IMG/VR virus record: IMGVR_UViG_3300045988_127961
DNA length: 64,000 nucleotides
DNA from: a virus
Direction: 5' to 3' (one strand)
In this document: piece by piece, positions 3,001-38,313 of the stretch
How positions within the stretch are numbered: position 1 is the first letter of the stretch
How the letters are laid out: each line of letters starts with the position of its first letter
The notes under the pieces: generated by a model
The model's database searches: none
What the model saw: only the letters and a program-made list of their open reading frames with translations
What the model was told of the DNA's origin: nothing
Translations under genes and position numbers: made by a program

Positions 3001-6000
3001 CTGCTGCAATTATAGATAATCAAAAATCGGCAGAAGAAAGTCAACAGGCTATGATTCTTTTACAAGAAGCCTATGAAGAATCTGGCACCTTAGTTTTTTC
3101 TTCTCAAGAAGAATTCACAAAAGCTCTTAAAGATGTAAAAAATGATACTATAGAAGCATTATGGAAAAATGTTGATACTATTTAGGAATAGATTGTAGCT
3201 TTAGATAATAATTCTACGTAGCTAAAGAATTTATTAGAAATGGCTTCTAGTGGATATAATGAAAATAATGAAGATTATAATAAATTAACTGATGAAGAAA
3301 AAGCTCTTGCTGATGCTGTTATTGCTGAAAGAGCTTCAAAAGATATTACTAATTAGACTCAAACATATGTAAATGCTCGTTCTACTGGCACTATGCTATT
3401 ACAAGGAAACGAATAGCAACAAAAATAGTATTTACAAGCAGTTTATGGAGCTGATAGTGAAAATTATCAAATTAAACAAGGTTGGTTCGGAAAATATACC
3501 ATCCAAAAGAGAGATTTGAATGGAACTTGGACTGATTTTAAATCTGGAAAAGCTAATGAACTAGGAGCCGATTATGGTACTTATCTTCTAAATCAATTTA
3601 CATCTGAAGATTCTGATACAATTAATAAATTAACTCAAGTTGGGGATCAAATTAAATCTAAAGATAGTAAAGAAGATTTAAGTGAAAAAATTTTTTAGTT
3701 ACAAAAAGATATTATAGATGGTGTTGGGGTATCTCTAGCTGGTTTTGATGAAGATGTTGTTGAAAATCTTAAAAATAATTTAGGTTAGATCCCTGACGAG
3801 TATAAAAAATAGATAGAAGCAGCTATAGAAGATTATGAAAAGAATTCTTCTGATTATGCAATACAACGATTTGCTGAAAAAGCTGAAGCTGCTAAAGGCA
3901 ATGCAGAAGGTGTTGGAGGGGTTTTAACATCTTTAAATAATGGTGATGATTTATCAACTGAACAAATTGCTTTTTTAGATACACTTAAATAGAAATATAC
4001 TGAATTAAATGATATTAAAGATCAAGGCAGTCATGAATATTTAGCTTTATTGAGAGAAATTTAGGAGCAAGAAGAAACTAATTATTTATAGGCTTTAGAA
4101 GATTCTAGAGATAGTTTATTTAAACAAGCATCTGATTTATCAAAAGAAATAAAAAATAAAGAAAGTGCTTTAAACGATCCAACTCTAAATAAAGATAAAA
4201 AAACTGAATTAGAAATTGAATTACAAGCAAAAACAGATAAATTCAATGAAGTAATGGATAAAATCCAAAACTCCGATTATTCAATTCAAGTTGCTATAGA
4301 TGCTGATTTAAAGTCTGATGTCGATTAGGCTTTTGGATTAGCTGATGAATTTGAAAAATTATAGTCTTATGTGAGTGATGGTTTGACAATTAGCATAGAA
4401 AAAGCATAGTAGATTATTGCTGATGGATATGGAGCAATGCTTACAAATGCTGAAGAGACTGCTGACGGCTAGATTAAATTAAATCAATAGGCAAGAGATT
4501 CTTTTATTGATGATAAACAAGCAGAATTGAATGCTGATAAAGATGCTAAAATTAAATAGTTAGAACTTGAGCGTCAAATGCTTGTTACTAAATAGCAAGC
4601 AACTGAAAAAGCTATTGAAATTTTATAGGGTGGATTAGAAGCAACTACTGCCACTGCTAAAGCAGAAGCTTTAGTTAATGCTGGTTTAGAATCTTAGAAA
4701 GCAGACCAAGCTGTATAGACTGAAGAAATAAAATCAAATGCTGCTGATGCCGGTAATGAAGAAATAGCTTAGGATACTGAAAATTTAGTTAATGATTTAG
4801 GTTTAATGTATTCAGATAATGCTAAAAATCTTGGTAATTCATTTGATGATGCTACAACAAATGCTGAAACATCAGCATCAGCGCAAGTTTCAGCTTGGAA
4901 CTAGGCCCAAAGAGCTGTTGTTGAATACGGTAAAAAAGTAAGAGAAGCCCCAAAAACCACCGGAGATATTTCTTATAATGAAATTAAATTTACGGGGTCT
5001 GGTAAGAAAAGTAAAACAACTGAAAGCACTCCTACTAGCAGTAATTATGCTTATTCTGAATCTACTATTGGAGATACAGTTGATTCAATACTTCGTGAAG
5101 CCGGGAAGCATGAAAGTGGGACAGCATTCTTAGATGAAGCTATTGAAAAGGCTATCGCACAACAATAGTAGAAGCTTGCCGCAGTAAATGCTCAGATTGG
5201 TAGTATTGATGCAGGAATTGCTGCTTTAAAAAGTACTGATGTTTATTTAGATAGATTACAAAAGAATTTAGGAAAAACTTCTAATGAAGTTAAAAAATTA
5301 GCAGAACGTTATCATGAAATAACCCGTGAAATTCAATATCAAGAAAAGCTTTTAGATAAACTATCTAAAACTAAAGATAGAGTTTATGGCAAAGCTAGAA
5401 TTGATAATATCAATTAGGAAATTGAAGCTAATAAAAAATTAGTTGACTTACAAACTAAACTTTATGATTTAGTATTAGCTAATGTTCTTGTAGACTAGCA
5501 AGAAGTTTAGAAACAATTTGGTGGATAGGCAATTTTTAATAAAGAAACATTAGAAATTGATAATTATACTGCTTTATATAATAAAGCTACTACTGATAAA
5601 TAGAGAGAAGCTTTAGAACAATATGAAGAGACTTTAGATAAATTAAAAGAACAAGAGGAAGTTTTAATTGATTTAAAGAATACTATTCAAGATTTACATT
5701 ATGAAAAATTAACTTATGAAGTTGAAGTAAAAATTCAATTAGATGAAAATGATACTAAGAAATTAGAATATTATTTTGATAAATTAAGTGATAATATTTA
5801 TAAAGCAGTTGAAGCTCTTGGATATTTACAAGGTCAATTCGATCCAGTAATTAGTCAATTAGGAACTTATGAAAACTTCTATGGCTAGTTAAACAATGCT
5901 TATTCTAATGGAGAAATTTCTCAAGAAAATTATATCGAAGGTTTACAAGATGTGTATGATAACACATTAGATAATTTAAATGCTTTGTAGGATTTAGACA

Positions 6001-8078
6001 AAGAAATGCTTGAATACTATGGTAATACTATAGATTTAGCAAATGATGAATTATCTAAATATACAGATCATATGGAGCATTTGACTAGTGTATTAGATCA
6101 TTATCGTTCTATTATTACTTTGTTAGGTAAGGATAAAGATTATGATAAAGTTTTATCAGTTTTGAATGGAACTGCTTAGACTAAGAAAAATAATTTTGAT
6201 GCTTCTAAACAATGGTATGAAAGCTTGAAGCATGAGCGCGATGCAGCGGCCGCTGCTTTAGCCAGTTCAACTGATGAGGCTGAACGCGAAGTGCTTCAAA
6301 AGAATTATGATGCTATATTAGCTGCATTTGATGAAGCGGAAGAGGATATGCTTTCTAAAGCTGAAGAATATGGCGAAGCATTAAAAGAAATTCTTACCAC
6401 AAAGATGGAACAAGCTGCGGATGAAATGAATAAGCAATTAAGTACTACCAAAGTGAGTATTAATGGTAATAACTTTAATATTTCTGGTTGGGATGCTTTA
6501 AATGATGCTTTGGATAGAATGTCTTCTTATCAAGATGAATATTTAACAAAAACTAATTAGATTTATGAAATGAATAAATTGCTTAATAATGTTAATTAGG
6601 CTATTGATAAGACAAATAATCAAGCAGCTAAAAATAGATACCAGCAATTTACTAAAGAGATTGAATAGCTAAAAGATAAAGATAAATTAAGTCAATTAGA
6701 ATTAGAAATTGCTTAGGCTAAATATAAAGTGCTTGAAGCACAAATCGCATTAGAAGAAGCTCAAAACGCAAAGTCTACAGTTAGATTGCAACGTGATAAT
6801 GAAGGTAATTTTGGTTATGTGTATACCGCAGACCAAGAGAAAGTAAATGACGCACAATAGGCTTTGGCGGATGCGGAAAATGATTTGTATAATATTCGTC
6901 TTAATGCGACAAACAAATATGGTCAACAAAAACTTCAATATGAGAAAGAGTTGGCTGAAAAGCTTGCAGAACTCGATTAGAAGGCCGCGGAAGATGCCGT
7001 TTACCGCGAGACTACATATCAGCAAGAACGCGCGCTAGTAATTCAACAATATACCGATTTAATTACTACTGCTGGAAATCTTTATGCAAAAGCGCAAGAA
7101 GAGGATAGCAGAGTCGTTCAAGACGCTTGGGTAAATTCTTTTGATATTATCAAAGATAATAGTAATAATTGGAAAGATACTATTACTGAAAACACTAATA
7201 TTATCAATGATACATTTAAAGAATGGCAAGACAGTATGGATGAAATTAGTAAAATTGTTGGTGATGATTTAAAAGATACTCAATAGAAAGTTAAAGATGT
7301 TACTGATGAAAGTAATAAACTTTATCAAGAAGTATCTAATAGAGTTATTCCTGCTCTTGAAAGCGAGTTAAGTTCTGTTCGTAGTGCTACTGAAGCTTGG
7401 GCACAACATCGTCAGCAATTACTTGATACTATTAGAGCTTATGAAGAGCTTTTAAACGCCATTCAAGCGACATTGCGTGCTTAGAGTGGATTCGGTAGCG
7501 ATAGTGGTGGAGATACTGACTGGGCGGCCATGATGGGCACTGTGGCTTATGGCTCCGCGCAATATAATCAATATAAAAGAAACCGCGAAGAAAAAATTGC
7601 TAATGGTGGTAGTATTAATGAAGATACTACGGCTCGAGTTGATGCATATTATAAATTGCTAAGTGAAGGAAAAATCTCTGGTAAACTTCCTAATGGTAAA
7701 TATAGTTTTACTTAGCTTACTGATTAGGAGTGGAGAGATTTAGTCGGATTTAGAAGTGGTGGTTACACTGGCACTTGGAATGATGACGGAAAATTAGCAT
7801 TCTTACATTAGAAAGAATTAGTTCTTAATGCTGATGACACGGAAAATATGTTAGCCTCTATCCAATTAGTTAGATAGATCGCAAAACAATTAGATTTCAA
7901 TAGTCAACAAATCTCCACTCTTTCTTCTTCTGGATTTACTGTTAGTTCTCAAGATGGAACATTAGAATAGAATGTTAAAATTGAAGCTAGTTTCCCGAAC
8001 GCGACTGATAGATACGAAATTCAAGAAGCATTTAATACATTAGTTAATGTAGCTTCTCAGTATGCCAATAGAAAATAA
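1..8078 (+). CDS. Tail tape measure protein, 5'-partial (more than 2690 codons in window). Read in frame 0 with dozens of in-frame TAG codons taken as sense. Stop is TAA at 8076-8078.
   Basis: Continuous frame-0 reading from nt 3 to 8075 contains only TAG as apparent stops (e.g. 90-92, 147-149, 168-170, 243-245, 375-377, 654-656). All ORF-track fragments (402, 2769, 3516, 6225, 7530) share frame 0. The TP901/TMP-like motif MVRLGADTASSTDEIAGGLEKFAAVANTIGLSFDNAAAALATITATTRQSEDVVGTALKTIFARIQG is present. There are Gly-rich hydrophobic segments (e.g. 2200-2420) and long coiled-coil Q/E/K-rich stretches. A rho-independent terminator follows. Confidence 0.85.
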
Positions 8079-8084
8079 AATTAA

Positions 8085-8120
8085 GGGTGAAGTCTTATAG
8101 GCTTCACCCTTTTTCTTTTT
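8085..8120 (+). terminator. Rho-independent terminator after the TMP gene
   Basis: GGGTGAAG...CTTCACCC stem followed by TTTTTCTTTTT. Confidence 0.7.
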
Positions 8121-8193
8121 GGGTAATTATATTGAATAAAACTAATTAATTTTTTAGAAAATTATAGAGTAATGAGTAAAAGGAGGGATTATT

Positions 8194-11100
8194 TTGGCTG
8201 ATAACGCACTAAATATTCAAGAAAGTTTATGTCAAGCAATGAGTATTATTGCTAATTCAAGTGTTGACAAAGTTAAATTTGATAGTACCATTGAATGTAC
8301 TATTATTGATGCGACTGATAAACTTATTGGTAAGTATAAGGTCAAAAATGAATCTTATGCGGAATTTTATGCTTATTCCCAAATAACCACTTATAACAAA
8401 GGTGATAAAGTGTATGTATAGATTCCGAAAGGAGATTATAATAGCACTAAATTTATTGTCGGCAAAAAGACAGATAAAAATGAAGATAAACCATATAATT
8501 TTGTTAATCCTTTTAATACTTTTATTGATTTAACTGGCAATTTTTTTATTGCCAAAGATAATAATAAAGAGATTTGGAGTATCTTAGCTAATGGCAATGA
8601 AGAAGAAATTGAGATTACTCCAAATGGTGGAATTACCTTTACTGATGAGCAATAGGGATTTACGCGGTTGGGGTTGCGTGCCGATTTCCGCGCCTGGCTT
8701 GAAACACTCGGTGTAATAAGTGGTAATTATGGATTAAAAATAAATATATATGGTATTAAAGATGATACTGCGGATAATATTAAAAAAATAGAAGCAAGTA
8801 TCAAAAATAATGGAGAAACCCCTTTAATCGCATCCATTGATTTAGATACTAATGACATGTATGGCAATCCCTATAATTTTGAAGGATATTATTCTCAAGA
8901 AATTGTTATTGATACTAGCGCAGTAGCTAAAATATATAATATAAAAATATTTTTATATCAAAAAGATAATTTTAAAGATAGTAATAATAATTTAATTAGT
9001 TATGCCAATGATTTCAATATGTCAATTCCGCCTAATAATATCTTTGTAAAAGATATATATATGGGATTAGGTATTTCCGCAGATGAAATAGAAAATGAAT
9101 ATGTAAGACTGTATTCATTAGATGGAAGTACTTATGTAATTGATGATAAAGGTTAGATTGATTCTAAAACTATTAAATTGAAATGGGTTCATTTTGATGA
9201 AGATGGCAATAGAACTCAAATAACTGAACATAAAAAAGAAGATACATTTGAAGTTCGCTGGTATGCGTATGAATTTGGAGCACCTTCCGCGGACGAATAT
9301 TCTGGTGTCTATTGGACTGCGATTGAAGATAATAAAAATAATTTTTATTATTAGCTAAAACCGCGCTCTAATAAAAATCAAGAATAGGTTAAAGTAATTA
9401 TTTTATATAATGGAAAAGTTTATAGAAGTAATATAATTACTTTTAATAATGAAAAACAAGTTCCTAATGATGCGACTATTGATAGTTTAAATGCTTTGTC
9501 TATTCACTGTGAAGATTAGACTAATGGTAATTATTTAATTTATAATTAGGCTAATTATTTGATGAATAGATCAGATGGAAAGATTAGTCGTAAATTAACT
9601 TTGCATTTTGATTCTAAGACTTATGCTATTAATAATGGTATAATTGGTAAAAATTAGGATGGAGAAAGTAAATTAGTTGAAGCTTAGAGAGTAATTTGGC
9701 AAATTCCTATTAAAAATACTATGCTTAATTTTGGTATTAAAGATGATGGAACTGATGCTACTTATAAAGAAATTATTATTGATTTAACTAATGAAAACGT
9801 CAATGTTTCTCCTGGAGAATTTTCTTTAAATTATACTATTAATACTTTTTATAGTAGTAATAAATCTAATAATACCGTAATTGCTAAAGTAGAAAAAGAT
9901 GGTATTGTTTATACCTCCATTAAAGATTTCACTTTTGGATAGGTAGGAACTAATGGCACTGATTGTACTTTGGTAATTGATATGATAGCTCACGAGAATT
10001 TAAATAATAAAGTATTTACTGCTATAAAAAGTGGAGTAAGAGATAATTATACTTTTAGAGCTTAGTTATATGATAATGAAGGTAAAGAAATTACTAATTT
10101 TGAAAAATGTAATTGGACTTGGAGTTTTATGGCTGGATCAACGGTTAATAATGTTGATTTATAGAATACTAATAATTAGAATTGTGTGTTAAGAGTTAAT
10201 ACTACAAACTCTATAATGAGTAATTTAATTATTTTGTAGGTAAAATTATCTGGTTGGGGAGACTATGATTTAACTGCTTACTATCCAGTTCCTATTACAA
10301 CTTTAGATAATACTTATATGAATGGTCCAACAGAGGTAATTTATTTAAGTAATGGTGAACCTACATTTTCTAAAGAGCCTTATAAATTATTTGTAAATGG
10401 CGAAGTAGATGAAATTGCGACTTGGAGTATTTATTCTAGTAATTCTAATGATGCTTTTATCGGTAAGATTAATTATAATGAAGATAAAAAAGAGTATAGA
10501 TTAAGTCCTATGAGTTTTTATGTTGATGGAGTAAGCGTTTATGGAGTCCAAGGAAAATAGGGAAATAAGATAGTTTGGACGTAGCCTATTTTAGTATTAT
10601 AGAATAAATATCCATCTGCTATGGTAAATAAATGGGATGGAAAATTTTATACTGATGTAGAAAATAATTTTTTAGGTGTAGCTTAGATTGCTGCAGGTAA
10701 AAAAGATAAAAATGCTAATACTTTTACCGGAGTATTAATAGGTGATTTTGGAACAAAACAAAATGCAGATTCAAGTATTTCTTATAATACTGGGGTTTAT
10801 GGATATAATAATGGATATCAAGTTTATGCTTTAAAAGATGACGGAACTGCTACTTTTGGTAAATCTAGCACAGGATAGATTATAATTAATGGAACTTCAA
10901 GTATTATAGAATCTAAAGATTTTGAATATACTTATAATGAGTCTGGAGCTAGTGTAATAACAGGGTTAAGTTTAGATTTATTAAATGGTAAAATTTATGC
11001 TTAGTCTGGTACTTTTAGTGATAATATTAAAATTAATTATAATGGTTCTACGGGATAGCCTTGGTATATTTAGTATGGAGCGGGAGAAAAATCATTAAGT

Positions 11101-22008: not shown

Positions 22009-25000
22009 ATGTCTAAGATACGTTTTCGTCCTGTATAGGGTCCAGAAGAAAAGATAAAAGCATATCCACAAACTGATGGATATTTTTATGTGGCAACAGA
22101 TACCGGACGAGTTTATTTAGATACAGCGACTGAGAATAAAATACCAATAGGTTCAAGTGGCGTTTAGGTAATTTATGGAACTGAAAAAGACGTCGGAATT
22201 GATTATGATGCGGATGAAAACCCAATCGGATATTCAATTCGTTTATCTAATTTATCAAGTTCTAATCCTCATGTAAATGATTTAATTTTAAATAGCGATG
22301 GAGCATTTTATCGTATTAAAGAATTTAAATTAAATGATGATAAAGAAGAAGTCGCAAGTTGTGAAAAATTAACTGTCGCCGGGGCGGGCGGTGGCGGAGA
22401 AGGAGACTCTGAACAAAAAGTTTTAGGAACTGTTTCTTTAACAAGAATTCCACCCGATAGTCCTGTTGATGTTTTGAATGAAGAAAATGTTAAAGTAAAG
22501 GTATTGGTTAAATGTAGAACTGTTGGAGGAGTTCCACAATCTTCTTCTGTGCAAGGAATTATAACTATAAGCGAAATTAAAAGTGCTACAGAAAAAGAAA
22601 TTTATTATACTTCTCCTCCTACTACTTATGAGCATAATATTCCGCAAGAAATTGATTTAACTAATATTTTAAGAAATTCATGTTCTAGTGAAATTAATTT
22701 TAGTATTTATTATAATCCTGATAAAGAAAATAATAGATTTTAGAAAAGCTCTGATACTATTAATATTAATAAACATCATCTTTCTTTTAGTTGGAAAGAA
22801 AGTAGTTTTAGTAATGATAGTCCAGTTGATAATGGACAAATATCTGTTAGTTGGTTAATGTCTGAAGATATTGCTAGATCTGTTGAAGTTTATTTTGATG
22901 ATTATTTAGTTTTAGATAGAACTTATAGTGATACTGATTCTTCTTCTGAAGATTCTTTTGTTATTACTCCTGATACAAATATATTAGGGACTGATAAAGT
23001 TTCTACTTTAAAAAATTATTTTACTCATGGTGAGCATATAATAAAGGCAAAGTTATATTTAATGAATAATTCTAAAAAAGGTACAGGAACAGATTTTATT
23101 TAGAAAGAAATCGTTATTCAAGAACCAGGCAATAAAATGCCTTTAATTTGGGTACAAGATTTTAAAACAGAATATTATACTTATGAGACAATAAGAATTC
23201 CTTTTAAAGTATTAGATCCAAATAATAATGGAGCTTTTATAACTCTTTATAAAAATGGTGTTCAAGTAGGAACTAGAGAATTAGATAGTTCGCAAGTTAG
23301 AGAATGGCAATATTGGGAAATTACTAATTTAACTGTAGATGATAGTTCTTATTATACTATTAAAGTTGGTACTGATCCTTATTCTTATTCTCGTAATTTT
23401 AATTTTACAATTTTAATTGACCCTTTAAGAGATATGAAGTTAGTAAAAAAAGATAATTTAAAGGTTAATTTTATAGCTACTGGTCGTTCTAATTCAGAAG
23501 GAAAATTAGGTCGTGAAACTTATTTAATTAATAATAATAAATATGTAGAATTTAAAAATTTTAACTGGTATAATAATGGTTGGGTTTTTGATGAAAATAA
23601 TACGACTTGTTTACGAGTAAGCAATGGTGCTGAAGTATCTATCCCAGTCGGAAAAATGGCTTTTAAAGATGGATCATCATCTGCTACTATTGAGATTCAA
23701 TTTAAAATAAAGAATCCTCAAAATTATGCTAAAGTTATAACTAAATATACTAGATATAAAGTAAGTAAAGATAATTGGGAAGATAATGATGCTTGGGATA
23801 AATTTAAAGCCCAAAATAAATATCTTAATTATGATGAGTTTTTAACTAAAGAATATTTACCGACAACTAATTATACTTATGATGATTTAGAATATAATAA
23901 AATAGAACAAGATTTTAATTTAAAGAATTTAGTTTGTGCATATGGTAAATTAGGGAATTCTGTTTCTCCTGGTATTTATTTTAGTCCATAGGATGCTGTA
24001 TTTACAGCTAACGGGGCTCAAGAAACAGTTTCAGTTGATTTTATTGAAAATGAAATGCTAAATCTTTCATTTGTTTATACTAAAAAGAAAAGTGATATAG
24101 AAGGCGGAAATTCTAAATTATTAGAAATTTTTATGAATGGCGTTTTAACTAGTGTTGTACGTTGTAGTAGTGATGTTTGGAATATTGATTCTGATTTCAT
24201 TAAATTTATGTCTAATACTTGTGATATTGATATTTATAGTATTAGAGTTTATGATACAGATTTAACTATTCCTGAAATAGTCCAAAATTACGCTTTTGAT
24301 AAGAGAAGTATAAAACAGTGGGACCAAAAAGATCTTTATGAAAACAATACGGTATTAAAAGATGATGTATTTTCTTATACTAAAATGAAAAAGTATAATG
24401 ATAATCATCCGACTGAACCTTTAATGCCCTATATTATTCTAAGGACTACTAAAAATAATAAAAATAATACGGATAATAGATTACCTTATTCTAAAGCAAA
24501 AGGAAGCTAGGAAGGAACTTTAGAATTTGTTAACACTGCTTTAGACGCTGCTTACAATAGTGGTGAATTAGAAAAAGTTGCTATAAAAGAAGGATGGAAA
24601 CCTGTAATCGAAAAAAATGAAGAAACATAGGAAGAAGTAGTAAAATATACTGCGGTATAGAATTATTATATGCATCATTGTCCTAGTTTTATAACTGTTC
24701 TTAATGGATGTACTTTCCAAGTTCAAGGTACTTCTTCACAATTTTATCCTCGTCGTAATTATAAAGCTAAATGCAAAGAATCAATGCTTTTAAATAGAGG
24801 CCCATTTGCTGAAGACTATAAAAAAGCAGGAGACTAGTATAATGAAGATATAACTAAACATCCTTGTTATTTAGAGTGGTTTTATATGGATAATAAGACA
24901 GTCGGTACTACTAAATTTACTTTAAAAATAGATTTTATGGAATCTTCTGGAGATTATAATAGAGGATTTGCTAATTTAGTTAACGAGATTTATTCTAAAC

Positions 25001-28000
25001 ATCCAATAGAAGACTATAAAGATTCTTTTGATAATTATAATTTATATGGAAATTTAGAAGATTATCGCACTTCGGTAAAAGGATTCCCCGTTTTAGCTTT
25101 CCATTATATGTCCAACGATGATAATACTTACTCTAAGGAAAATAGTAATAACTGTATTTTTATTGGCAAATATAATATGTTATTAGATAAAGGCTCAGAT
25201 GAATGTTTTGGATTTAAGCCAAATAAAAAGATTTTACAAAATCAAATTACGGGCAACCCTAAAGTAAGAGATATGGCAGAATGTTGGGAATTTTAGAACA
25301 ATTCAAGAACTTTTTGCTCTTTCCGCGACCCTTGGAATCGTTATAAATTATCATTTAGAAATCCTAATATGGTAATCCCTCCAGATGGAGATAATCCTGA
25401 ATTAGTTAAAGGCGCTCCAAAAGTCGTTGATTCTTTTGAACCAAGATATAATCCAAATGATGATTTAATTGCTGATAATTTATTTAGTTTAAAAGAGTGG
25501 CTTGATCCAGATGGGACATAGACTAAGATTGTTGGGGAAGAATTAAAAAATGTAGCCCCAGATAGACTTACTAAAAAAGAAATAGTTGATGAAATTACTG
25601 GTATAAAATCTATTAAATGGATTATAAAGAACCCAGACGGAGAAGAAATAGAATTTAATGTTGCTAATGATACAAGTAAACAAGAATTACTCTTAGCTTT
25701 AATGTCTAACTGGGAAGACGCAGTTAGTTGGGTGTGGAGTACTTGTTTAGATTGCGATATTGAATTTGATGATGGATAGAAATTAAAAATTCCATCTATG
25801 GGCATTTATACTAAAGTTGATGGATTAGCTGAAGCTATATATGTTCCTAATGTCTATTATGTTGAAGATGGAGTTAATGAAAATGGAAAAATTATTTATA
25901 AATTAGCTTCTGAAGAATATAACTCTGAAACAAGATATTATAAGTAGATTAATGAAAATAATAGTTTAAAGTATGTAAGCATAAAACTTACAAATAATTC
26001 AGATAAAGTATATAAAGCAAATATTTATTATCTTTTAACTGATAGTAAAAATGAAATTTATGTATTAAGTTCTGATAAATTTAATTCTTCTTTAGATTAT
26101 TATTCTTTTAATAAAAATGAAGAAGGTATTGAGGAAAGATGGAAATTACCTAATCCAGTAACCTATGGCTCTATTACTTATACTAAAGATAGTAAAGAAT
26201 ACCGTCAAGCTAAATTTAAAAATGAATTAAGTAATTTCTTTGATATTGAATATTTAGCTTCTTACCTTTTAATGACAGAAATTTTTGAATGTTATGATTC
26301 TCGTGGAAAAAATGCAATGTTTGCTTCTTGGGGACCTCAAAAAGGTAATATTCAAAAATCTACTGGCAAACAACATTATATTTGGTATCCTATCTTTTAT
26401 GATATTGATACTCAATTAGGTATTAATAATACTGGTATCCCATCTTTTGAATACTACATTGATGCTACTGAAGAAGGAAGTTTTTCAACTAATGATAGTG
26501 TTCTTTGGAATAATTTTTACACTTTCTTTAGAAGTAAGATGGTGGATAAATATAAGCAATTAATGGGAACTCAAAATAATTCTTATAGTCCAAATGATTC
26601 AAGAGTAAATAAAATTTTTACCAAAGGAGCAGGAAGCGGGGCTAAAAAAAGTGATATTGTAGATAAATGGTATCGTACTGATCCATCGGTATTTCTTGAT
26701 AGCTATGCCGTTCTAGGAGACAGACCAATTGTTGCCTTAAGTTTAGACGAAGAATTTAAGTATATTATTCCAACAAACTCTAAAGCCAAAGATATGCCAG
26801 TGTTTGGTCGTTTGACTGATGGAGGTTCATATGAGGTTGAAGATGATAAATATTTTTATGCTTTGCAAGGAGATAGAAATCTTTATCGCGCGCAATTTTT
26901 AGCAAATCGTCTTAATTACATCGACTCTTGGTTGACCGTTGGCACTTATGCTAGAAATGGTGGAGGAAGCTATATTAGAAGTCGTATTTCTGCAAACAAT
27001 CCTAAGAATACGTCAGATAAATGGATTGAAGGCACTAATACTCAAAATATGGAAGGATTAATTACAAATTCTCAGTATTGGAAAAATGATGTTGAATTCG
27101 AAGAGAAAAATCATATGTTCGATGGTGAGTATTGGATTAACATGGAGCCCGCGCGTAATGCTTATGTTACTATTGGCACAGATGGAGAGAATTTTCCTTC
27201 AAAGAAATATAATGGTTTAGAACCAGTTAAATATGTAGCTCCTGATATTAAAAAAGGAATTATAAGTAGCGGTAATTATAAAGAACAATTATATTATATT
27301 TATGGAATGGATCAAATGAAATCTCTCGGTGATTTAAGTAAATTATATTTCCAAGAGTTCGCGGCTGAAGGAAAAATGGAGCGTTTAACTGATTTATTAT
27401 TAGGATATGATGGAAAAGATGAAAGTGGTAATGAATATTTTAATAATGATGTAAATGACTGGTCCTTCTCAAAAGGCGGAATGCCTTTACTTAAAGAAAT
27501 GAATCTTTGTAATATTAACTTTAAAAAAGACTAGGGGGCATTAGATTTAACTAAAAGTGAAAAACTTGAAAACTTTAGAAATACTAAATCTAATATCCCG
27601 AGAGTTAATTTTGCTCCTGGAGTAGCTTTAAATACTTTATATTTAACCAATCGAACAAATTATTTAAGTTTAATAGAAGCTAATTTATTAACGAAATTAA
27701 TAACTAACTATATATATCCTGAAAAAAATCCAATTACTGGAAAACTTGAGGTCTCAGATGAAAATCGTGGTTTATATATTCAAGGTCTTACTGATGCTGA
27801 AGAAGGAAAAGAAAAAACCGAGATAAGAACTTTTGATATTCGAGGCGGTAATTTAGGTTATAATAGTTATGAATTGTTACGCAAATATATTTCAGCTAGT
27901 AAAAATAGTAAATTAGATTTATCTAATTGTATTATTAATTTAAATAATGTTTAGTGGAGTCCATATAGACTTCTGACTGACACTAAAACAACTCTTGATC

Positions 28001-29754
28001 CAGAAAGAAAATCTTATTATAGAGATAATGGACATTTTTAGTTGGTAGCTATTCCAAAAGATTAGGTTAATAAAATAACAAAATCTGATATTAAAAATAA
28101 TTAGATTTATTATTTAGATACAATAAATGGAGACAATAATAATCATAGTATAATAACTGATTATAATTTATTAATTGATATTTATAATAATTATAGGGGT
28201 CTTAATACTAATAAGCCAGAAATATCTGGTGTTATGTATATAAAAAATAATAATTAGATTGATGAATCTATTATCTAGAATGAGTTATAGGATAAATACC
28301 CTGATTTAATAATTTTTGTAGAAAATGTTAAACAAGAATGTTCTGCCAAGTTTATTTTAGAAAAAGAAGATATTGATGGAGTATTAATTTAGGAGGTTCT
28401 AAAAACTTAGAAATTACCCTTATCTAGCAGTAAATTCTTTGATGATCCAACAAATTCTTCTAGCGAAACTTATATTTCTTTTGGTAGCTTACAAGAAAAA
28501 ATGCCAACTTATGATTTTAAAGGTTGGGAAGATGATACGGGAGAATTAGTAATTGCTGTTGGAAAAAATGTAAATGAAGAAGACGTTGTTTTAAAAAGCG
28601 ATTGGAATTCTTTGTCTTTACAATCTAATAAAATGGATTATATTTTTAAAGCGAGATTTGAGCGCAAATCTTATACGATCACTTTCGTTAATGGTGACCG
28701 CGTTATTAATGATTCAACTGTAAAGAAAGTATTTAATTATGGTGAAAGAATTACTGTTCCAGAAGAATTTTATTATTTTAATAATACAGAAGTATCTGAT
28801 TTACCAGAAGGCGAAGACTCATTAGAATGGACTTGGAGATAGACGGGATGGGCGGATAAAGATGGAGTTAAAATTGATTTAACTAAACAATTAGCCTATG
28901 CTGACCGCGAATTCTACGCTGTTGGAGAGCCGATTAGTGTTTATGATAATATTTTAACTAATGATTCTACTCATAAATATTATGATATTATAAATTCTGA
29001 TGGAGAGTTATCATTTGTAATGACTGACTTAGCTAAGAATTTAAAAGGTAAAGTTACTTTACCTACAACTTATAACGGTTAGCCGATTACAAGAATTAAA
29101 TATAGCCAAGTTAATCCATCAGCAGCAGTTGGTATTCAAGTAAATCCTAATATCACTGCGATATTTTTTGCTCCAAAAGATAGCAATAAAATTTCTGTAA
29201 TAGATGATTATGCTTTTATTTTAGATAGTGGGTTAGAATATTTCCAATTTAGTGATTGTTTAAAGAAAATTGGTACTAAAGCATTTTATCAATGTCCTTT
29301 AAGTCGTAATAACATAATTCCTTATTCTTCTTCTACTGAAGGTTTGACTTTTGGAGCTCAAGCATTTTATCAAAGTAAGATGGGTTCTTATTCTCCTTAT
29401 AATTTAATTATAGAGGGATGCAAAGACGGTATTCTTAATTTTGATATAAATGCATTTTCTGGTCAGACAATTTTAAATATGTCTGGTAATTAGTTTAAAG
29501 GTTATACTGGCGCTATTCAAGTATAGATTGGTACTAATAAACACCCAATTAAACAAATTACAGCAGATAGCTCTGGCAATATTTTTACTCCTCGTCAAAC
29601 TGGTATGCCTACAGTGGCTAATGGATACACAGGTCGTTTTAGATATTATTATGTTGCTAGTTATGGTGAAAGTATTAAAAATACTTTACACAATATTTAT
29701 GAAGCAATGATATCTAATAGAGCGAATTTTGAAGAAGAGCCTATTGTAAAGTGA
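22009..29754 (+). CDS. Giant tail fibre or host-recognition protein (2581 aa) with C-terminal BspA-type leucine-rich repeats. TAG-recoded.
   Basis: ATG after AAAGGAG. Frame-1 fragments 22474, 22858, 23137, 24055, 24886, 26272 and 28501 are all joined only by TAG. N-terminus RFRPVQGPEEKIKAYPQTDGYFYVATDTG is of the fibre N-terminal type. The C-terminal region (about 28950-29500) has repeats such as ISVIDDYAF...FSDCLKKIGTKAFYQCPL...LTFGAQAFYQS typical of BspA LRRs. TGA stop at 29752. Confidence 0.55.
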
Positions 29755-33505: not shown

Positions 33506-33916
33506 ATGGATCAAAATTTGATTAATCAATTATTCCAAGTATGTTTGATTCCTATGCTTGGCGCTTTAACTACTTTTATAGTTATTTGGATTAAAGCAAA
33601 AAGTGCGGAATTACAAAAGAAAACTAATAATGATATTTTAAATAAATATGTGCAAATGGCTACTGACACAATTACTAACTGTGTTATTGCCACTAATCAA
33701 ACTTATGTAAATTCTCTTAAAGAACAAGGTAAGTTTGATGAAGCTGCTCAAAAAGAAGCATTTTAGAGAACTTATCAAGCAGTATTGCTCATTTTAAGTG
33801 ATGACGCTAAAGAGTATTTGAATAATGCTTTTGGTGATTTAAATAAATATTTACAAGAGAAGATTGAGTCTACAGTAAATAATTATCGTACTCCAAGTAA
33901 TGATTTAAAGCAATAA
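33506..33916 (+). CDS. Holin, LL-H-like (136 aa). Single N-terminal transmembrane segment. One in-frame TAG.
   Basis: RBS AAAGGAG. TM helix LFQVCLIPMLGALTTFIVIWIKA followed by a charged or amphipathic tail. Located at the end of the structural module. Confidence 0.5.
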
Positions 33917-33920
33917 AAAT

Positions 33921-33962
33921 AAGGGAGACATTCTTAATTGAATGTCTCCCTTATTTTTTTTA
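33921..33962. terminator. Bidirectional rho-independent terminator
   Basis: AAGGGAGACATTC / GAATGTCTCCCTT, A-rich on the left and T-rich on the right. Separates the plus-strand holin from the minus-strand LytTR gene. Confidence 0.7.
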
Positions 33963-34685
33963 TCTAAATGGATTTTTCCATCGTCGATTAATTTCTTCAT
34001 AGCCTTTTTTAGGAAAGTATAAAACTTCACCATTTTTAAAAGTTAAATTATCTTTATTCATTATTTTAATTTGATTTAAATTAATAATTAAACTTGGCGG
34101 AATAAAGACAAAATCTGGATGATAAACTAAAGTTCCTATATAATTTTCAAAAGAAGTTTTTAAAGTTTTACTATTTAGAATTTCGTTCTCTAAATGACAA
34201 CACAAATTTCGTTTTTGAATATCAGCATATAATACTTTACCCAAATCAATTTTTACTTCTCCGTTAGGAGTGTCTAAATATTTATATTCACGTCTTTTTT
34301 CTTCTCTAACTTCATGTAAAATAGAAAAAATTTTTTCTTTATTAACAGGTTTTTTGACGAAGTTAAAGGCCTTTACTTCATAAGAAGCTACTCCATAATT
34401 TATTTGAGAGGAAACAAAAATTATTTTTCCAATATACCCATTTGTTTTTAAAGATGAGCTATTTCAATACCATCCATTTTTTTGAATGTAATTCCTAAAA
34501 AGATTGCATCATAATCAATATTGGAGTTAATTAATTTTTCAGGATCAGTAAATTTATATACATATCCTGGCAAATTAAATTCTTTAAAATACTGATTTAT
34601 TATTTCTTCTAATGAGTCATTTTGCTAATCGCTATTGTCGCAAACACCTACAATAAAAATTTTAATCACCTTCATTTTGTTTATT
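33960..34685 (-). pseudogene. LytTR-family (AgrA/ComE-like) response regulator, disrupted. The receiver-like N-terminus (ATG 34685) ends at TAA after IAHL in an A5 tract. The LytTR DNA-binding domain continues in the -1 frame.
   Basis: N-frame reads MKVIKIFIVGVCDNSD(Q)QNDSLEEIINQYFKEFNLPGYVYKFTDPEKLINSNIDYDAIFLGITFKKMDGIEIAHL then TAA. The other frame reads ...FVKKPVNKEKIFSILHEVREEKRREYKYLDTPNGEVKIDLGKVLYADIQKRNLCCHLENEILNSKTLKTSFENYIGTLVYHPDFVFIPPSLIINLNQIKIM..., which is a LytTR pattern. The canonical phospho-acceptor Asp is replaced (IFLGI instead of FLDI). Confidence 0.5.
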
Positions 34686-34759
34686 TTAGAAAAAATTTTT
34701 CTATCTCTATATTTTCTCTATATTATAATTATACAAAAATTTTTAAATATTGTAAAATA

Positions 34760-34835
34760 AAAAATTATAAAGTGTCAAATTTATTTAATTTTAAGTAAGT
34801 GAAATTTTTATTCAAAAAGTGTCAGTAATTATAAT
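34760..34835 (+). promoter_or_regulatory. Divergent AT-rich control region with two copies of AAGTGTCA (34770 and 34817) and a -10-like TATAAT
   Basis: Direct repeat AAAGTGTCAAATT / AAAGTGTCAGTAATT, 47 bp apart. TATAAT at 34830-34835. Lies between the LytTR gene and the downstream plus-strand cluster. Confidence 0.3.
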
Positions 34836-34918
34836 ATATTTACACAAAATAAAAGTCATATAATAATGAAAGGAAAAGATAAAACCTTTCATTATTATAT
34901 TTCTCCGGAGGTAATAAC

Positions 34919-35365
34919 ATGAATACTTATGGTTATCCATAGCAGTAGTATCCAATAGGTAATAATAGACCTATTTATGGAACAACTGCTACGCCTGTGA
35001 TTCAAAACAATACTACATAGCGAATTAGACCCGTTGCTTCTTTAGAAGAAGTTCGAGCTATGAATATAGATTTTGATGGTTCAGTTTTTTATTTTCCTGA
35101 CTATGCTAATCGTAGAATTTATACAAAACAAATAAATATGGATGGAACAGCTTCTATTAATATGTATGAATTAAAGGAAATCCCAAATTCTTCTTAGCCT
35201 AATAATGATTATATAACACGAGAAGAATTTAATACTACTTTAACTTCTATTAAAGAAGTATTTGCATAGATCATGGGATCTAATAACGCGGTTGCGCCGT
35301 CTTAGGAATCGGGTTAGCCAGCTCAATAGCAACCAGTAGAGAGCAAACCGCAGTTTAATTTTTAA
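34919..35365 (+). CDS. Gln-rich hypothetical protein (148 aa) with 8 in-frame TAGs
   Basis: RBS GGAGG. TAG codons flank CAG codons (CCA TAG CAG TAG TAT at 34937-34951) and occur in a PAQQQPV-type tail. Confidence 0.5.
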
Positions 35366-35377
35366 GGAGAGTTTTAA

Positions 35378-35626
35378 ATGACACAATCAATGAATCCAAT
35401 GCAAATTATTGCTATGATTAAAAACGGTCAAAATCCATAGCAATTAGTTTTATCTATGCTTGAAAATCAAATGGGCGGAACGCCAATGGGCAATAATTTA
35501 TTACAAATGGCACGGAACGGTCAATCCGATGACATTGAAAAATTTGCTCGTAATTTGTTTGAATCAAGAGGGTTAAATTTCGATAAAGAATTTAATAGTT
35601 TTAAGTCCCAAATGGGGTTTAAATAA
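35378..35626 (+). CDS. Small hypothetical protein (82 aa), one TAG
   Basis: RBS AAGGAG. TAA stop. Confidence 0.45.
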
Positions 35627-35652
35627 ATAAAATTATAGAAAGAGGTTTTGTT

Positions 35653-36534
35653 ATGTTTAATTACAATTATCCAATGAGCACGCCTAATTATTCATTATCT
35701 GATATTGCTGCGGCTTCTGGAAATGGCTATCGTAATAATGATGGCGGAATGTGGGGAGACGGAGCATGGTGGATTATTATCCTGTTCTTATTCTGCTTCA
35801 ATGGTTGGGGCGGTAATGGCTGGGGTAATAATGGTGCTAATGGTTCTGGTTTCCAAGGCACTACAACTCGAGAAGAAATCGGCTATGGTTTTAACATGAG
35901 CGATCTTAAATCTGGGGTTAATGGTTTAGCTTCTAGCCTTTGTAATGGTTTTAGTGGAGTAAACACTAATCTTTTAAGTGGTTTTGCTAATCTTGCTGAA
36001 ACTAATAATGCTAATACTCGCACTTTACAGAGTGATATCTGCAATATGGGTATGAATAATATGCAGAATACCTTTAGTATTACTCAGGCTATTAATGCTG
36101 ATACTGTAGCAAGTATGCAGAATACTAATAATTTAACTCAGCAATTAAGTAATATGGCAGCTACTAATGCTCAATGCTGCTGCGAAAATAAACAGTTAAT
36201 TCAATCTAGTTTTGCTGATCTTAATTATAATCTTGCTAGTATTGCTTGCCAGAATCGTCAGGCTACCGTTGATGGTGTTCGCGATATTATTGACAACAAT
36301 AATGCTAATATGCGTTCTATTCTTGACTTCCTTGTTCAAGATAAAATTGAGACTCTTACCAGTGAAAATAGCACTCTTAAAAATTAGATTTCTCAAAATC
36401 TTCAAAATGCTTATCTTATTGATCAGTTGTCTCCAAAAGCAACTCCTGCTTATATCGTTGCTAATCCTTATACTGGTGTTAGCTATACCAGTTATGGATG
36501 CGGTTATGGTTCAGGATGCGGTTGTAATTCCTGA
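35653..36534 (+). CDS. Asn/Gly-rich low-complexity membrane protein with Cys clusters (293 aa)
   Basis: RBS AAAGAGG. Hydrophobic segment WWIIILFLFCF. The region GWGGNGWGNNGANGSG, a CCC motif and a C-terminal YGCGYGSGCGCNS. One TAG. Confidence 0.5.
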
Positions 36535-36555
36535 TTGAAGAAAGAAGGTTAAATT

Positions 36556-36978
36556 ATGGAAATAACGGCTAATGCTTTACAATCAGTTGCTACTGGTTCT
36601 AATGTAGTATTCACTAACACAGCTGTTGCTGGAAACTGTTCCATAATGTATCGCGAGGGTAGCGGTTTAGTTACCCTCCGCGGTCTTACGAACGGTCAAC
36701 GCAGAGCTCGCTTCCGCATTTCATTTGGAGGTAATATAGGACTTCCAACTACTGGAACTGCGGGTGCTATTTCTTTGGCTATAGCTATTAATGGAGAGCC
36801 AGTTACTACTTCTACAATGATTTCCACTCCTACGGCTACTGGATAGTTTAATAATGTTTCACGTGCTTTATTCCTCGATGTGTTAGGCGGTTGTTGCACT
36901 CAAATCAGTATTGAAAACACGAGTTCATAGGCTATTGATGTTGAAAACGCCAGCTTAATTATCGAGAGAGTGGCATAA
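36556..36978 (+). CDS. BclA C-terminal-domain-like (C1q/TNF-like jelly-roll) protein (140 aa)
   Basis: The pattern ANALQSVATGSNVVFTNTAVAGNCSIMYREGSGLVTLRGL...RFRISFGGNIG...ISLAIAINGEPVTTSTMISTP...ASLIIERVA resembles exosporium BclA C-terminal domains. Two TAGs. Confidence 0.45.
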
Positions 36979-36991
36979 GGAGGTTTTTTAA

Positions 36992-37537
36992 ATGTGTGAT
37001 AAATTCCAAGAAATTAAAAAACAATTATTAACTCAAGTAGAAGGCCAAATGGCTCATTTAGAATGTGTTGATACAAAGGAAATGGGCGAAGTAATAGATA
37101 TGATAAAAGACCTTGAAGAGGCTATTTATTATTGCACTATTACTGAAGCTATGAATGATTTACCTGAAACCACACATTATTATACTGAAAAATATAAATC
37201 TCCTCATAAAAAAAGAATCTATAAACCTATGACATATGACTATGATTGGGAAGATTATGATTATGATGAGCACGAATATGAGATGCCAACAAGTGGGAAA
37301 TCTCATGAAACCCATGATAGCAGAGAAGGCCGTAGTGGCGTCCACAGAAAGATGTATATAGAAGCCAAAGAACTTCATAAAGATAAGAGTGTTTAGATAA
37401 AAGAGTTAGACAAGTATCTTCAAGAATTAAGTTCTGATATAGTAGAAATGATTGAAGATGCTTCTAATGATGAACGTTCTTATATGGAGAAGAAAATCTA
37501 GGCTTTAGCATCTAAAATTGGATCTATGAATGGTTAA
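36992..37537 (+). CDS. Hypothetical protein (181 aa). Acidic, with a Tyr/Asp-rich middle. Two TAGs.
   Basis: RBS AAGGAGG. Frame-2 ORF 36992 extends through TAGs at 37394 and 37498 to TAA at 37535. Confidence 0.45.
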
Positions 37538-37850
37538 TATTAATAATAGGAATTGGAGGATACTATTAGTATCTTCCAATCATCCTATGTTAATGCGACC
37601 TTCTGGAATATATACTTTAGGTTCTTGCGATGATCCTACTTCAACAATTTATATTAATGAAAATATTAGTAATAAAAAATTAAAAAAAGTATTAGCACAT
37701 GAATTAACTCATGCTGCTATTTTTAGCTATGATATTTCATTAAAACCAGAAGAAGAAGAATTGATTGCGGATTTAGTGGGAACTTATGGCGAAGAAATTA
37801 TAAATAATACTAATCTTTTATTTAAATAGATAAAAAAAATAAGGGAATGA
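37530..37850 (+). CDS. ImmA/IrrE-family zinc metallopeptidase-like protein (106 aa). HEXXH motif HELTH. The terminal TAG is read through to TGA at 37848.
   Basis: TIYINENISNKKLKKVLAHELTHAAIF matches the ImmA/IrrE core. The ORF ends with TAG at 37827, then IKKIRE and TGA inside the terminator. Confidence 0.5.
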
Positions 37851-37883
37851 AACTATTTTTGTTTCATTCCCTTATTTTTTTTT
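37832..37883. terminator. Bidirectional terminator between the convergent late (plus) and replication (minus) modules
   Basis: AAGGGAATGAAAC / GTTTCATTCCCTT with an A8 tract on the left and a T9 tract on the right. Confidence 0.7.
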
Positions 37884-37884
37884 A

Positions 37885-38313
37885 TTAGTCTTTAAGCGGT
37901 AATTTTAAAGTCCTTTCATAGTACTCTTTAGCCTATCCATTTCCACCTAAACCTGCATATACTTTAAAGAATTCGACTAACTATTCATACTGCCCTGAAG
38001 TCATATATCCTTGTTTTAAGAAACTTTGACATAACTGAATTAATCTAAATCTATAAGAAGCAAGAATTATTTCAATATATCTCTCACTAATTTTCTTTTC
38101 TTCCAATACAAAAGATCTCAAATTATTTAGATCTTCTTTGATTGGGGCTATATGTTCTTCAATTAATTCTTCTAATTTTTCATCTTTCTTTTCTTCTGCC
38201 AATTTTTGATACATTTTCATTTGAGTATAAATATATCTACAAAAGGCTAAGAGGCCAGCAGAAATAAGACCAAAAAATATTTCTATAAAATGCTAGGCAA
38301 TAAAAGCAGACAT
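37885..38313 (-). CDS. Small membrane protein (142 aa) with an N-terminal TM helix. Possible lysis-associated protein. Three in-frame TAGs.
   Basis: RBS GGAAGGAGG. MSAFIAQHFIEIFFGLISAGLLAFCRYIY then a charged coiled region. ORF-track fragment 37981..38220 is extended both ways through TAG codons to TAA at 37885. Confidence 0.5.

Follow-up and report, generated by a model that had tools for sequence, protein, structure and literature searches.

Introduction

Fibres that carry a TNF-like knob are a recurrent design among viral attachment proteins. They include the tail-needle knob of Sf6 (3rwn), P5 of PRD1 (1yq5), the short tail fibre of A-1(L) (8ke9) and gp23 of mycobacteriophage TM4 (9n6a), in which the shaft and the knob belong to one polypeptide encoded among the tail or vertex genes. 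Knobs of this type are also found in Bacillus, in the ExsFA/BxpB-BclA system of the exosporium and in the tip fibrillum of endospore appendages (ENA) (7r1m, 1wck, 9h38). ExsF, a TNF-like trimer that stands alone, docks the leader of fibrous collagen-like exosporium proteins, and in ENA the covalent connections are made by CC motifs (PMC12357932). Here we analyse a stretch of 64,000 nucleotides (hereafter the window) from the IMG/VR virus record IMGVR_UViG_3300045988_127961, in which positions 34919-37850 hold a cassette of six genes, g1 to g6. Their products include a helical stalk candidate (g3), a predicted C1q/TNF-like knob (g4) and a minimal zinc metallopeptidase (g6), of which we tentatively combine the first two in a two-part fibre.

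Soluble zincin cores of about 105-110 residues, with an HExxH motif and a similarly placed downstream Glu, are represented by the minigluzincins (selecase MJ1213, 4qhf-4qhj), Peptidase_M78 and DUF2268/YjaZ, and g6 is built in the same way. The regulatory proteases ImmA and IrrE work with an adjacent helix-turn-helix (HTH) repressor. The families of g3, g4 and g6 are among the commoner 'hypothetical' proteins of the gut virome, comprising thousands of clusters at 90% identity, and the matching PHROGs are of unknown function. We found no function assigned to any of the six families in the literature or in annotated records.

Results

A late operon of six recoded genes

TAG is a sense codon across the window: open reading frames (ORFs) of at least 100 aa total 20,697 residues with TAG read through, against 10,637 under table 11. 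With TAG read as Gln, the cassette resolves into six co-directional genes on the + strand (Table 1), which are separated by spacers of 12-26 nt except for the overlapping g5 and g6. Most of them are preceded by a GGAGG-like ribosome-binding site. On either side a strong bidirectional terminator closes off the unit (Table 1). The cassette contains 15 in-frame TAG codons distributed over all six genes; therefore none of the genes gives a full-length product under the standard code. In alignments with homologues, the commonest partner of these TAG positions is often a Gln encoded by CAA or CAG, for example at residue 21 of g2 (7/10), residue 125 of g4 and residue 135 of g5.

The TAG density of the cassette (15.8 per 1000 codons) matches that of the late, structural arm (16.2) and not that of the opposite, early arm (4.2), so the cassette belongs to the late class. 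This agrees with the initial annotation, which described a late operon following a holin gene, and the gene at 33506-33916 upstream of the cassette matches the holin family phrog_13712 with E 7e-38. The five genes listed in that annotation are all present, whereas the small g2 had been overlooked. More than 7,400 homologue clusters for g3, 4,700 for g4 and 3,300 for g6 argue that the six are genuine genes and not chance ORFs.

The g4 protein has a predicted C1q/TNF-like fold

The fold of g4 was predicted with AlphaFold2 as a monomer, using a homologue of 99% identity. The model is all-beta (predicted local distance difference test score, pLDDT, 78; predicted template modelling score, pTM, 0.75) and shows a ten-strand jelly-roll of the TNF/C1q type. 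Its best structural neighbours are exosporium and endospore-appendage proteins, namely the C-terminal domains (CTD) of F-BclA and BclA, and ExsFA. The viral fibre knobs of cyanophage A-1(L), PRD1 P5, the Sf6 needle and TM4 gp23 follow, and the nearest neighbours in BFVD are phage proteins of 130-142 aa. The resemblance to the BclA C-terminal domain that had been proposed from sequence pattern thus stands for the fold, and does not extend to a sequence family. BclA_C, C1q, TNF and DUF3992 are all absent from g4 and 32 homologues, a Pfam search with g4 gives nothing at E <= 1, and the g4 profile finds no match among PDB sequences. The only PHROG match, phrog_20016, is of unknown function, and the homologue clusters bear neither a Pfam domain nor a name.

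The domain fills residues 1-140 of the protein, which has neither an exosporium leader nor a collagen-like GXX repeat. A profile search against 1.84 billion representatives returned 836 clusters, and the 150 listed representatives are all short (71-196 aa), aligned from the first to the last residue; none is fused to a fibre or collagen domain. Both termini (MEITANA..., ...ERVA) and the pair C113-C114 never vary; C28 is almost invariant. Moreover, g4 is the most conserved protein of the cassette: in comparison with locus L007, the identity is 73% for g4, 52% for g6, 51% for g1, 48% for g2, 40% for g5 and 33% for g3. Conservation this strong points to a ligand or an assembly interface that is itself conserved.

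The g3 protein contains a single long predicted helix

g3 is rich in Asn (15%) and Gly (10%) and has few charged residues, and its N-terminal tail is disordered with a net negative charge. Residues 39-49 form a hydrophobic segment, WWIIILFLFCF, which by hydropathy has a core of 11-13 residues flanked by Gly/Trp and lacks a positive flank. With so short a core and such flanks it is not a textbook membrane anchor, which qualifies the transmembrane segment of the initial annotation. The Asn/Gly-rich composition, the CCC motif and the Cys-containing tail described there are all present. QCCC occupies residues 174-177 (CCC 175-177), and the Cys/Gly/Tyr tail ends in YGCGYGSGCGCNS. A further motif reads P-A-Y-I-V-A-N-P-Y, and across the family P-x-Y-(I/V)-V-x-N-P-Y.

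In the AlphaFold2 monomer, residues 82-259 form one continuous helix of 178 residues (pLDDT 60-85, pTM 0.21), about 26 nm long if straight. Owing to its low pTM and its single long helix, the model was judged uninformative for a fold search. None of the g3 homologue clusters has a Pfam hit, and a weak match to the trimerisation coil TolA_bind_tri is found in 6 of 65 homologues.

The g6 protein is a minimal zinc peptidase

g6 contains the motif HELTH (H57-E58-x-x-H61) together with E76, and the three motif residues and E76 do not vary among 10 divergent homologues. The protein matches DUF2268 with 24.5 bits (cut-off 23.6) and lies just below the threshold for Peptidase_M78 (20.9 bits, cut-off 22), and a precomputed PF06114 hit is present on about one third of the closest listed homologues. 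In addition to the PHROG given in Table 1, it matches phrog_87, a metallo-protease family (E 4e-6). These results agree with the initial assignment of g6 as a HEXXH peptidase. The best PDB match by sequence is the minigluzincin MJ1213 (110 aa), over residues 27-100 with E 0.017-0.05; IrrE is among the weak hits, with E 0.4. As the match is weak, the relation to MJ1213 is best described as a resemblance, and homology is not proven. Most listed homologues measure 102-111 aa, and g6 likewise is a bare catalytic core of about 100 aa, in keeping with the soluble stand-alone zincins of about 100-110 aa represented by the minigluzincins.

The start of g6 overlaps the stop of g5 (ATGAATGGTTAA). Homologues run 4-9 residues beyond the in-frame TAG at 37827-37829; this TAG is therefore a sense codon, and the real stop is the TGA at 37848-37850 within the stem of the downstream terminator (37834-37880). 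The read-through into the terminator noted from the DNA is in this way confirmed by the family alignment. No HTH repressor (ImmR/XRE/DdrO-like) lies beside g6 in this cassette or in those of about 15 relatives; its neighbours are g5 and the terminator.

Accessory proteins g1, g2 and g5

The remaining three proteins have conserved cores, and in g1 and g5 these are accompanied by variable low-complexity segments. g1 begins with an N-terminus rich in Gln, Asn, Pro and Tyr, in line with its earlier description as Gln-rich, and continues with the conserved core RPVxSxEE...DFDG...IYTKQ...DGT...YE, after which come a helix and an aromatic motif that is conserved at the C-terminus. It occupies the same position in about 15 loci, and its core is also found in Clostridium perfringens phages (CPD1_036). 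g2 has a conserved NP(Q/E)QL motif and is presumably helical; relatives between g1 and g3 share 48-93% identity, and hidden Markov models (HMMs) also find g2 in CPD1 and bajarodcaudo virus 5. g5, correctly described before as acidic and rich in Tyr and Asp (pI 4.9, 14 Tyr), has conserved N- and C-terminal regions that look helical by eye and a variable middle rich in Tyr, Asp, Gly and Ser (40-91% identity among relatives).

Searches of all six proteins against Pfam, NCBIfam and PADLOC gave only chance-level hits for g1-g5. PDB profile searches with g1 and g5 returned no significant match, and no family passed the threshold for g2. None of g1, g2, g4, g5 and g6 contains a hydrophobic or signal segment. 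A role as a defence system finds no support, as PADLOC models give no significant match to any of the six proteins (the sole hit is a chance-level AbiEi fragment, E 0.016).

The cassette is conserved across divergent gut phages

About 15 divergent loci share the order g1-g2-g3-g4-g5-g6, with 30-50% identity. Most of these belong to TAG-recoded phages, and at least one (L022) uses the standard code. g3 and g4 are adjacent in 24 of the 29 related loci in which either was found, and single finds mostly correspond to a neighbour lying off the stored contig. In standard-code siphophages such as Butyrivibrio phage Ceridwen, Dulem viruses and bajarodcaudo virus 5, g3 and g4 also occur as a pair, mostly together with a distant g1 and in some cases g2; the pair follows the lysis genes and, in temperate phages, precedes the integrase.

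C. perfringens phages (CPD1 and relatives) have g1, g2 and g3, and a small beta-rich protein of another kind, with CNRRCNCC at its N-terminus, fills the slot after g3. The corresponding slot of bajarodcaudo virus 5 is similar. Small beta-rich Cys proteins of this kind are encoded at 7902-8279 of the CPD1 locus (CPD1_040), 7758-8177 of the bajarodcaudo virus 5 locus and 5547-5957 of the cr116_1 locus, and no Pfam hit is found in the proteins filling the g4 slot of such loci. Their N-terminal cysteine motifs, for example CNRRCNCCNRR, recall the CC connectors of endospore-appendage subunits.

Homologues of g3 with all hallmarks (the Gly/Trp-flanked hydrophobic helix, QCCC, coiled coil, PxPAYVVxNPY and GCxC end) are found in many crAss-like phages (Steigviridae, Suoliviridae), in Bacteroides uniformis phage C3_41T2LP and in viruses assigned to Methanomassiliicoccales. 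In these crAss-like, Bacteroides-phage and archaeal-virus genomes g3 again precedes small beta-rich proteins containing Cys, and HExxH proteins accompany it in cr116_1 and C3_41T2LP. HMMs of g1, g2, g4 and g5 do not detect the neighbours of crAss-like g3, which are positional analogues only. A g2-like motif fused to the N-terminus of the crAss-like and archaeal homologues was considered and rejected, as 48-911 of 1000 shuffles scored equally and no HMM hit was obtained. In the records of the crAss-like, Bacteroides-phage and archaeal-virus genomes g3 bears HHpred-style labels such as 'spike protein/glycoprotein' or 'outer capsid protein/viral fiber', which in crAss-like genomes probably rest only on coiled-coil similarity.

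The g3 module frequently follows lysis genes. It lies after the holin gene here, after holin and endolysin in bajarodcaudo virus 5, Ceridwen and Dulem virus 33, after holin and L,D-carboxypeptidase in cr116_1, and after holin and a LysB/FtsL-like protein in cr109_1; the same LysB/FtsL-like protein precedes it in cr52_1. No annotated lysis gene adjoins the module in the B. uniformis phage or in csAssE-Sib. All carriers with an identified source come from animal gut or faeces, including rumen and wastewater-derived isolates, although this was no systematic survey. A tail protein resembling a 'major tropism determinant' is encoded a few genes upstream of the g3-like gene in cr52_1, cr109_1 and vir215, and cr52_1 and vir215 also encode a reverse transcriptase, indicating a diversity-generating retroelement.

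Genome context and control region

Positions 108-37850 of the + strand hold very large structural-type genes with abundant in-frame TAG, and from 37885 on the - strand holds replication genes with few. Pfam hits to this - strand arm in near-identical contigs include dUTPase, NrdD/NrdG, guanylate kinase and DnaE. The near-identical contigs, of about 195-198 kb, are present in human gut metagenomes. They were binned as metagenome-assembled genomes with 'Mollicutes', Anaeroplasmatales or Bacilli. No recognisable endolysin is encoded by the six genes scanned upstream of the holin or the two just downstream of the cassette, which together with the binning raises the question of the host and of the mode of lysis. 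No tRNA gene, and hence no TAG-suppressor tRNA, is found in the window; the recoding machinery must therefore be encoded elsewhere in the genome of about 195 kb. The region has no match to Rfam families.

Two giant late ORFs, at 108-8078 (2656 aa, 77 in-frame TAG) and 22009-29754 (2581 aa, 27 in-frame TAG), have no Pfam hit in the records of close relatives. The first gene of the convergent arm (37885-38313, - strand) encodes a 142-aa protein that has a hydrophobic segment at its N-terminus and matches two PHROGs of unknown function, phrog_4105 and phrog_4257; the gene contains 3 in-frame TAG despite its 'early' strand.

Table 1 Features of the cassette and its flanks in the window.
Feature	Position	Strand	Description
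Upstream terminator	33915..33958	both	Bidirectional intrinsic; 19-pair stem and T-run on both strands; parts the holin gene from the cassette control region
LytTR-type response-regulator gene	33960..34675	-	Divergent; in two frames here; Response_reg Pfam hit in relatives
Control region and 5' leader	34676..34918	+	243 bp; nearly invariant among close relatives
g1	34919..35365	+	148 aa, 8 in-frame TAG; phrog_21718 (E 4e-7)
g2	35378..35626	+	82 aa; kept between g1 and g3 in relatives
g3	35653..36534	+	293 aa, stalk candidate; phrog_16490 (E 7e-31)
g4	36556..36978	+	140 aa, free-standing C1q/TNF-like jelly-roll (predicted); phrog_20016
g5	36992..37537	+	181 aa, acidic protein; position conserved in relatives
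g6	37530..37850	+	106 aa, minimal zinc metallopeptidase; phrog_1233 (E 1e-14)
Downstream terminator	37834..37880	both	Bidirectional intrinsic; 20-pair stem and T-run on both strands; common to the convergent - strand arm; holds the g6 stop

Upstream of the cassette lies a divergent response-regulator gene, which carries its own in-frame TAG and is found only in loci L003-L006 and L011. Relative to the intact 238-aa product of five close relatives, the copy here has a 1-nt deletion (a missing T in a T-run near 34445-34455), and is either a real pseudogene or the result of a homopolymer assembly error. The control region contains two copies of AAAGTGTCA (34769-34777 and 34816-34824), 47 bp apart, which are the only ones in the 64 kb (0.4 expected); 8 of 100 shuffles reached two copies. 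The second copy reads GTGTTA in some relatives. The related AAGTGAAA lies between the two copies, and TATAAT is found nearby at 34829-34834. These repeats may be binding sites of a regulator, and control of the cassette by the LytTR regulator, limited to this phage clade, is offered as a hypothesis. The promoter-like hexamers of the control region do not exceed chance in such AT-rich DNA.

The g1 leader contains a perfect 16-bp inverted repeat (34858-34900), and the resulting hairpin ends 10 nt before the ribosome-binding site. Substitutions in its arms among relatives keep the pairing only if G-U pairs are allowed on the + strand, which suggests an RNA element acting in stability, attenuation or translation.

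Discussion

A tentative model of a two-part fibre

Our preferred reading, to which we give somewhat less than even weight, is that the cassette products form a virion-associated appendage, a two-part fibre composed of stalk and knob. g3 would provide the stalk as a long helix of about 26 nm, probably as a trimeric coiled coil, beginning with the Gly-flanked hydrophobic helix and ending in the Pro/Tyr/Cys/Gly tail. g4 would form a trimeric knob capping this tail, and the conserved cysteines of both proteins may lock the two parts via disulfides or a bound metal. g1 and g2 could act as accessory or adaptor proteins, g5 as a chaperone or assembly factor, and g6 in the processing of some cassette component. 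The appendage may be a fibre, a whisker or a needle, whose knob would bind a conserved ligand and whose hydrophobic helix would be membrane-seeking.

Since only g3 has any hydrophobic or signal sequence, the assembly would be made in the cytoplasm together with the virion parts, and a virion-associated appendage is favoured because the partners lack export signals and the cassette has the codon usage of the late structural arm. Moreover, the replacement of g4 by other beta-rich Cys proteins in CPD1 (CPD1_040), bajarodcaudo virus 5 and cr116_1 resembles the swapping of heads on a constant stalk. The model also draws on the adjacency of g3 and g4, the strong conservation of the free-standing g4, the weak trimerisation-coil matches of g3 homologues, their 'viral fiber' or 'spike' labels in crAss-like records and the recurrence of HExxH proteins beside g3, and ExsF offers a solved precedent for a separate TNF-like knob docked to a fibrous partner.

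Several points weigh against such a fibre. The cassette lies after the lysis genes and not among the head or tail genes, and a hydrophobic helix of 11 residues is unusual in a virion fibre. The heptad pattern of g3 is irregular, and neither this pattern nor a model with pTM 0.21 allows its oligomeric state to be assigned. The proposed contact between g3 and g4 is drawn from adjacency and co-occurrence, with no fusion protein found among the 150 listed of 836 clusters. We found no virion proteome, structure or mutant in the literature for any carrier. Where the carrier is temperate and uses the standard code, the pair is flanked by lysis genes and the integrase, a place where lysogenic-conversion genes are usually found, and the recurrent holin, lysin or LysB-like neighbours fit a role in lysis equally well.

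Alternative roles of the cassette

Such a role in lysis or egress is an unlikely but serious alternative. A membrane-inserted, coiled-coil and cysteine-linked g3 would act with g4-g6 at or after holin triggering, for example by disrupting the membrane, freeing particles from the envelope or setting the timing. The cassette directly follows lysis genes in unrelated genome types, and g3 recalls the FtsL/LysB-like proteins and the Rz spanins, which latter have an N-terminal hydrophobic helix, a long helical part and conserved cysteines. Against this, the family spans hosts with and without an outer membrane and probably archaea, which have no envelope step common to all, and inspection of the sequences reveals no lipobox or signal peptide in any partner. 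The hydrophobic core of g3 is short and lacks a positive flank, and the charges on either side of it point, if at all, to a stalk in the cytoplasm. The module is also separated from annotated lysis genes in the B. uniformis phage and csAssE-Sib, and the strongly conserved TNF-like knob has, to our knowledge, no role in lysis.

Somewhat less likely still is a membrane-active machine, independent of the envelope type, which viruses of Bacillota, Bacteroidota and methanogens would use for a step of tailed-virus entry or release not recognised before. The layout of g3 is that of a class I viral fusion protein, with a Gly-flanked hydrophobic peptide first, then a long helix, and between this and a second helix a cysteine cluster; in this arrangement g4 would be a TNF/C1q-like cap, and the mini-protease could prime the machine. 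A second and frankly exotic alternative is that the ligand of the g4 knob comes from the animal host, for example as a glycan or receptor, and not from a microbe. It would explain why the carriers come almost only from animal guts and yet infect unrelated hosts.

We consider it improbable that the cassette is a 'moron', that is, a surface or exclusion module whose fibre is shown by the infected or lysogenic cell and serves adhesion, receptor masking or phage exclusion. In the temperate carriers mentioned above, the g3-g4 pair has its own terminators and occupies the classical position for it, and bacterial TNF-like domains act as lectins or adhesins (structural hits of g4: 9ib6, 8ol4, 8okw). 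In the phage studied here, however, all cassette genes carry in-frame TAG at the structural level and would not be expressed from a silent prophage under the host code; lysogenic conversion is thereby excluded here and could apply in the temperate standard-code carriers. In addition, g4 has no signal peptide, the six proteins have no significant match among defence systems, and large phages that appear to be lytic preserve the order of the six genes.

The spore-surface role that the initial annotation had raised, in which the cassette would decorate host spores or mimic an exosporium, is very improbable. It draws on the structural neighbours of g4 (F-BclA CTD, BclA CTD and ExsFA) and on the likeness of the Cys-rich connectors and Tyr-rich proteins to those of ENA and the spore coat. 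The hydrophobic helix of g3 presumably also resembles the tiny sporulation proteins of the YjcZ type. The role fails because of the distribution of the carriers, with the g3-g4 pair in a Butyrivibrio fibrisolvens phage and g3 in crAss-like and Bacteroides phages and in methanogen-assigned viruses; we know of no spore formation in Butyrivibrio, in Bacteroides hosts or in methanogens. Furthermore, no NCBIfam sporulation family is matched, and g4 lacks the collagen-like region, the leader and any BclA_C, C1q or DUF3992 hit. The other earlier proposal, a regulatory protease of the ImmA/IrrE type that cleaves a repressor, is as hard to credit: the HExxH with its downstream Glu, the near-threshold Peptidase_M78 score, the PF06114 hits among homologues and the weak IrrE match speak for it, but g6 has no HTH/XRE-type partner and nothing beyond its catalytic core, its nearest match being MJ1213, and its translation is coupled to that of g5, with g6 as the last gene of a late, structural-type operon that is expressed only under recoding.

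Implications

Our analysis turns six scattered unknowns into a single conserved cassette with predicted identities (helical stalk, C1q/TNF knob and minimal zincin), which can be tested as a unit. The cassette is abundant across the gut virome and spans host phyla and possibly domains, and its recognition corrects the 'spike glycoprotein' and 'outer capsid protein' labels of crAss-like phages. Cultivable carriers include Butyrivibrio phage Ceridwen, whose g3 and g4 homologues are QHJ73768 and QHJ73769, the CPD1-like phages of C. perfringens, among them CPD1 (CPD1_036 to CPD1_040) and vB_CpeS-17DYC, and B. uniformis phage C3_41T2LP (genes 00031 to 00036). If the product is a virion appendage, it would represent a new construction of a fibre-and-knob adhesin and a candidate determinant of the attachment or persistence of gut phages. 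If it acts on membranes, it would add an extra step to phage entry or exit.

Comparison with known systems

Among phage membrane proteins, the i-spanins lambda Rz and P2 LysB are the closest to g3, sharing with it the N-terminal hydrophobic helix, the long helix, the cysteines and the holin/endolysin neighbours. g3 differs from them in having no o-spanin-like lipoprotein partner, in occurring also in hosts without an outer membrane, and in its hydrophobic core of 11-13 residues without a positive flank; it is also twice as large as Rz and poor in charged residues. Inspection of g3 and its neighbours here and in crAss-like phages revealed neither the type II signal-anchor topology of an i-spanin, the N-terminal tail being net negative, nor a lipoprotein partner. 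Compared with ImmA and IrrE, g6 stands without an adjacent repressor, and its similarity to known peptidases is marginal (MJ1213, E 0.017).

The Bacillus exosporium and ENA systems have a similar knob, while the cassette shows no collagen-like region, no leader and no kinship at the level of sequence. Its stalk is alpha-helical with a hydrophobic helix, a dedicated mini-peptidase is added, and its carriers are phages of hosts believed to be non-sporulating. The viral fibres with a TNF-like knob are analogues of the proposed design. In contrast to their single polypeptide encoded among tail or vertex genes, the cassette assigns shaft and knob to two genes in a separate operon after the lysis genes; its shaft carries a hydrophobic N-terminal helix and Cys clusters, and its location on the virion is a proposal. 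Each part of the cassette has a known fold, and analogues of the proposed design exist, so that the system is not categorically new.

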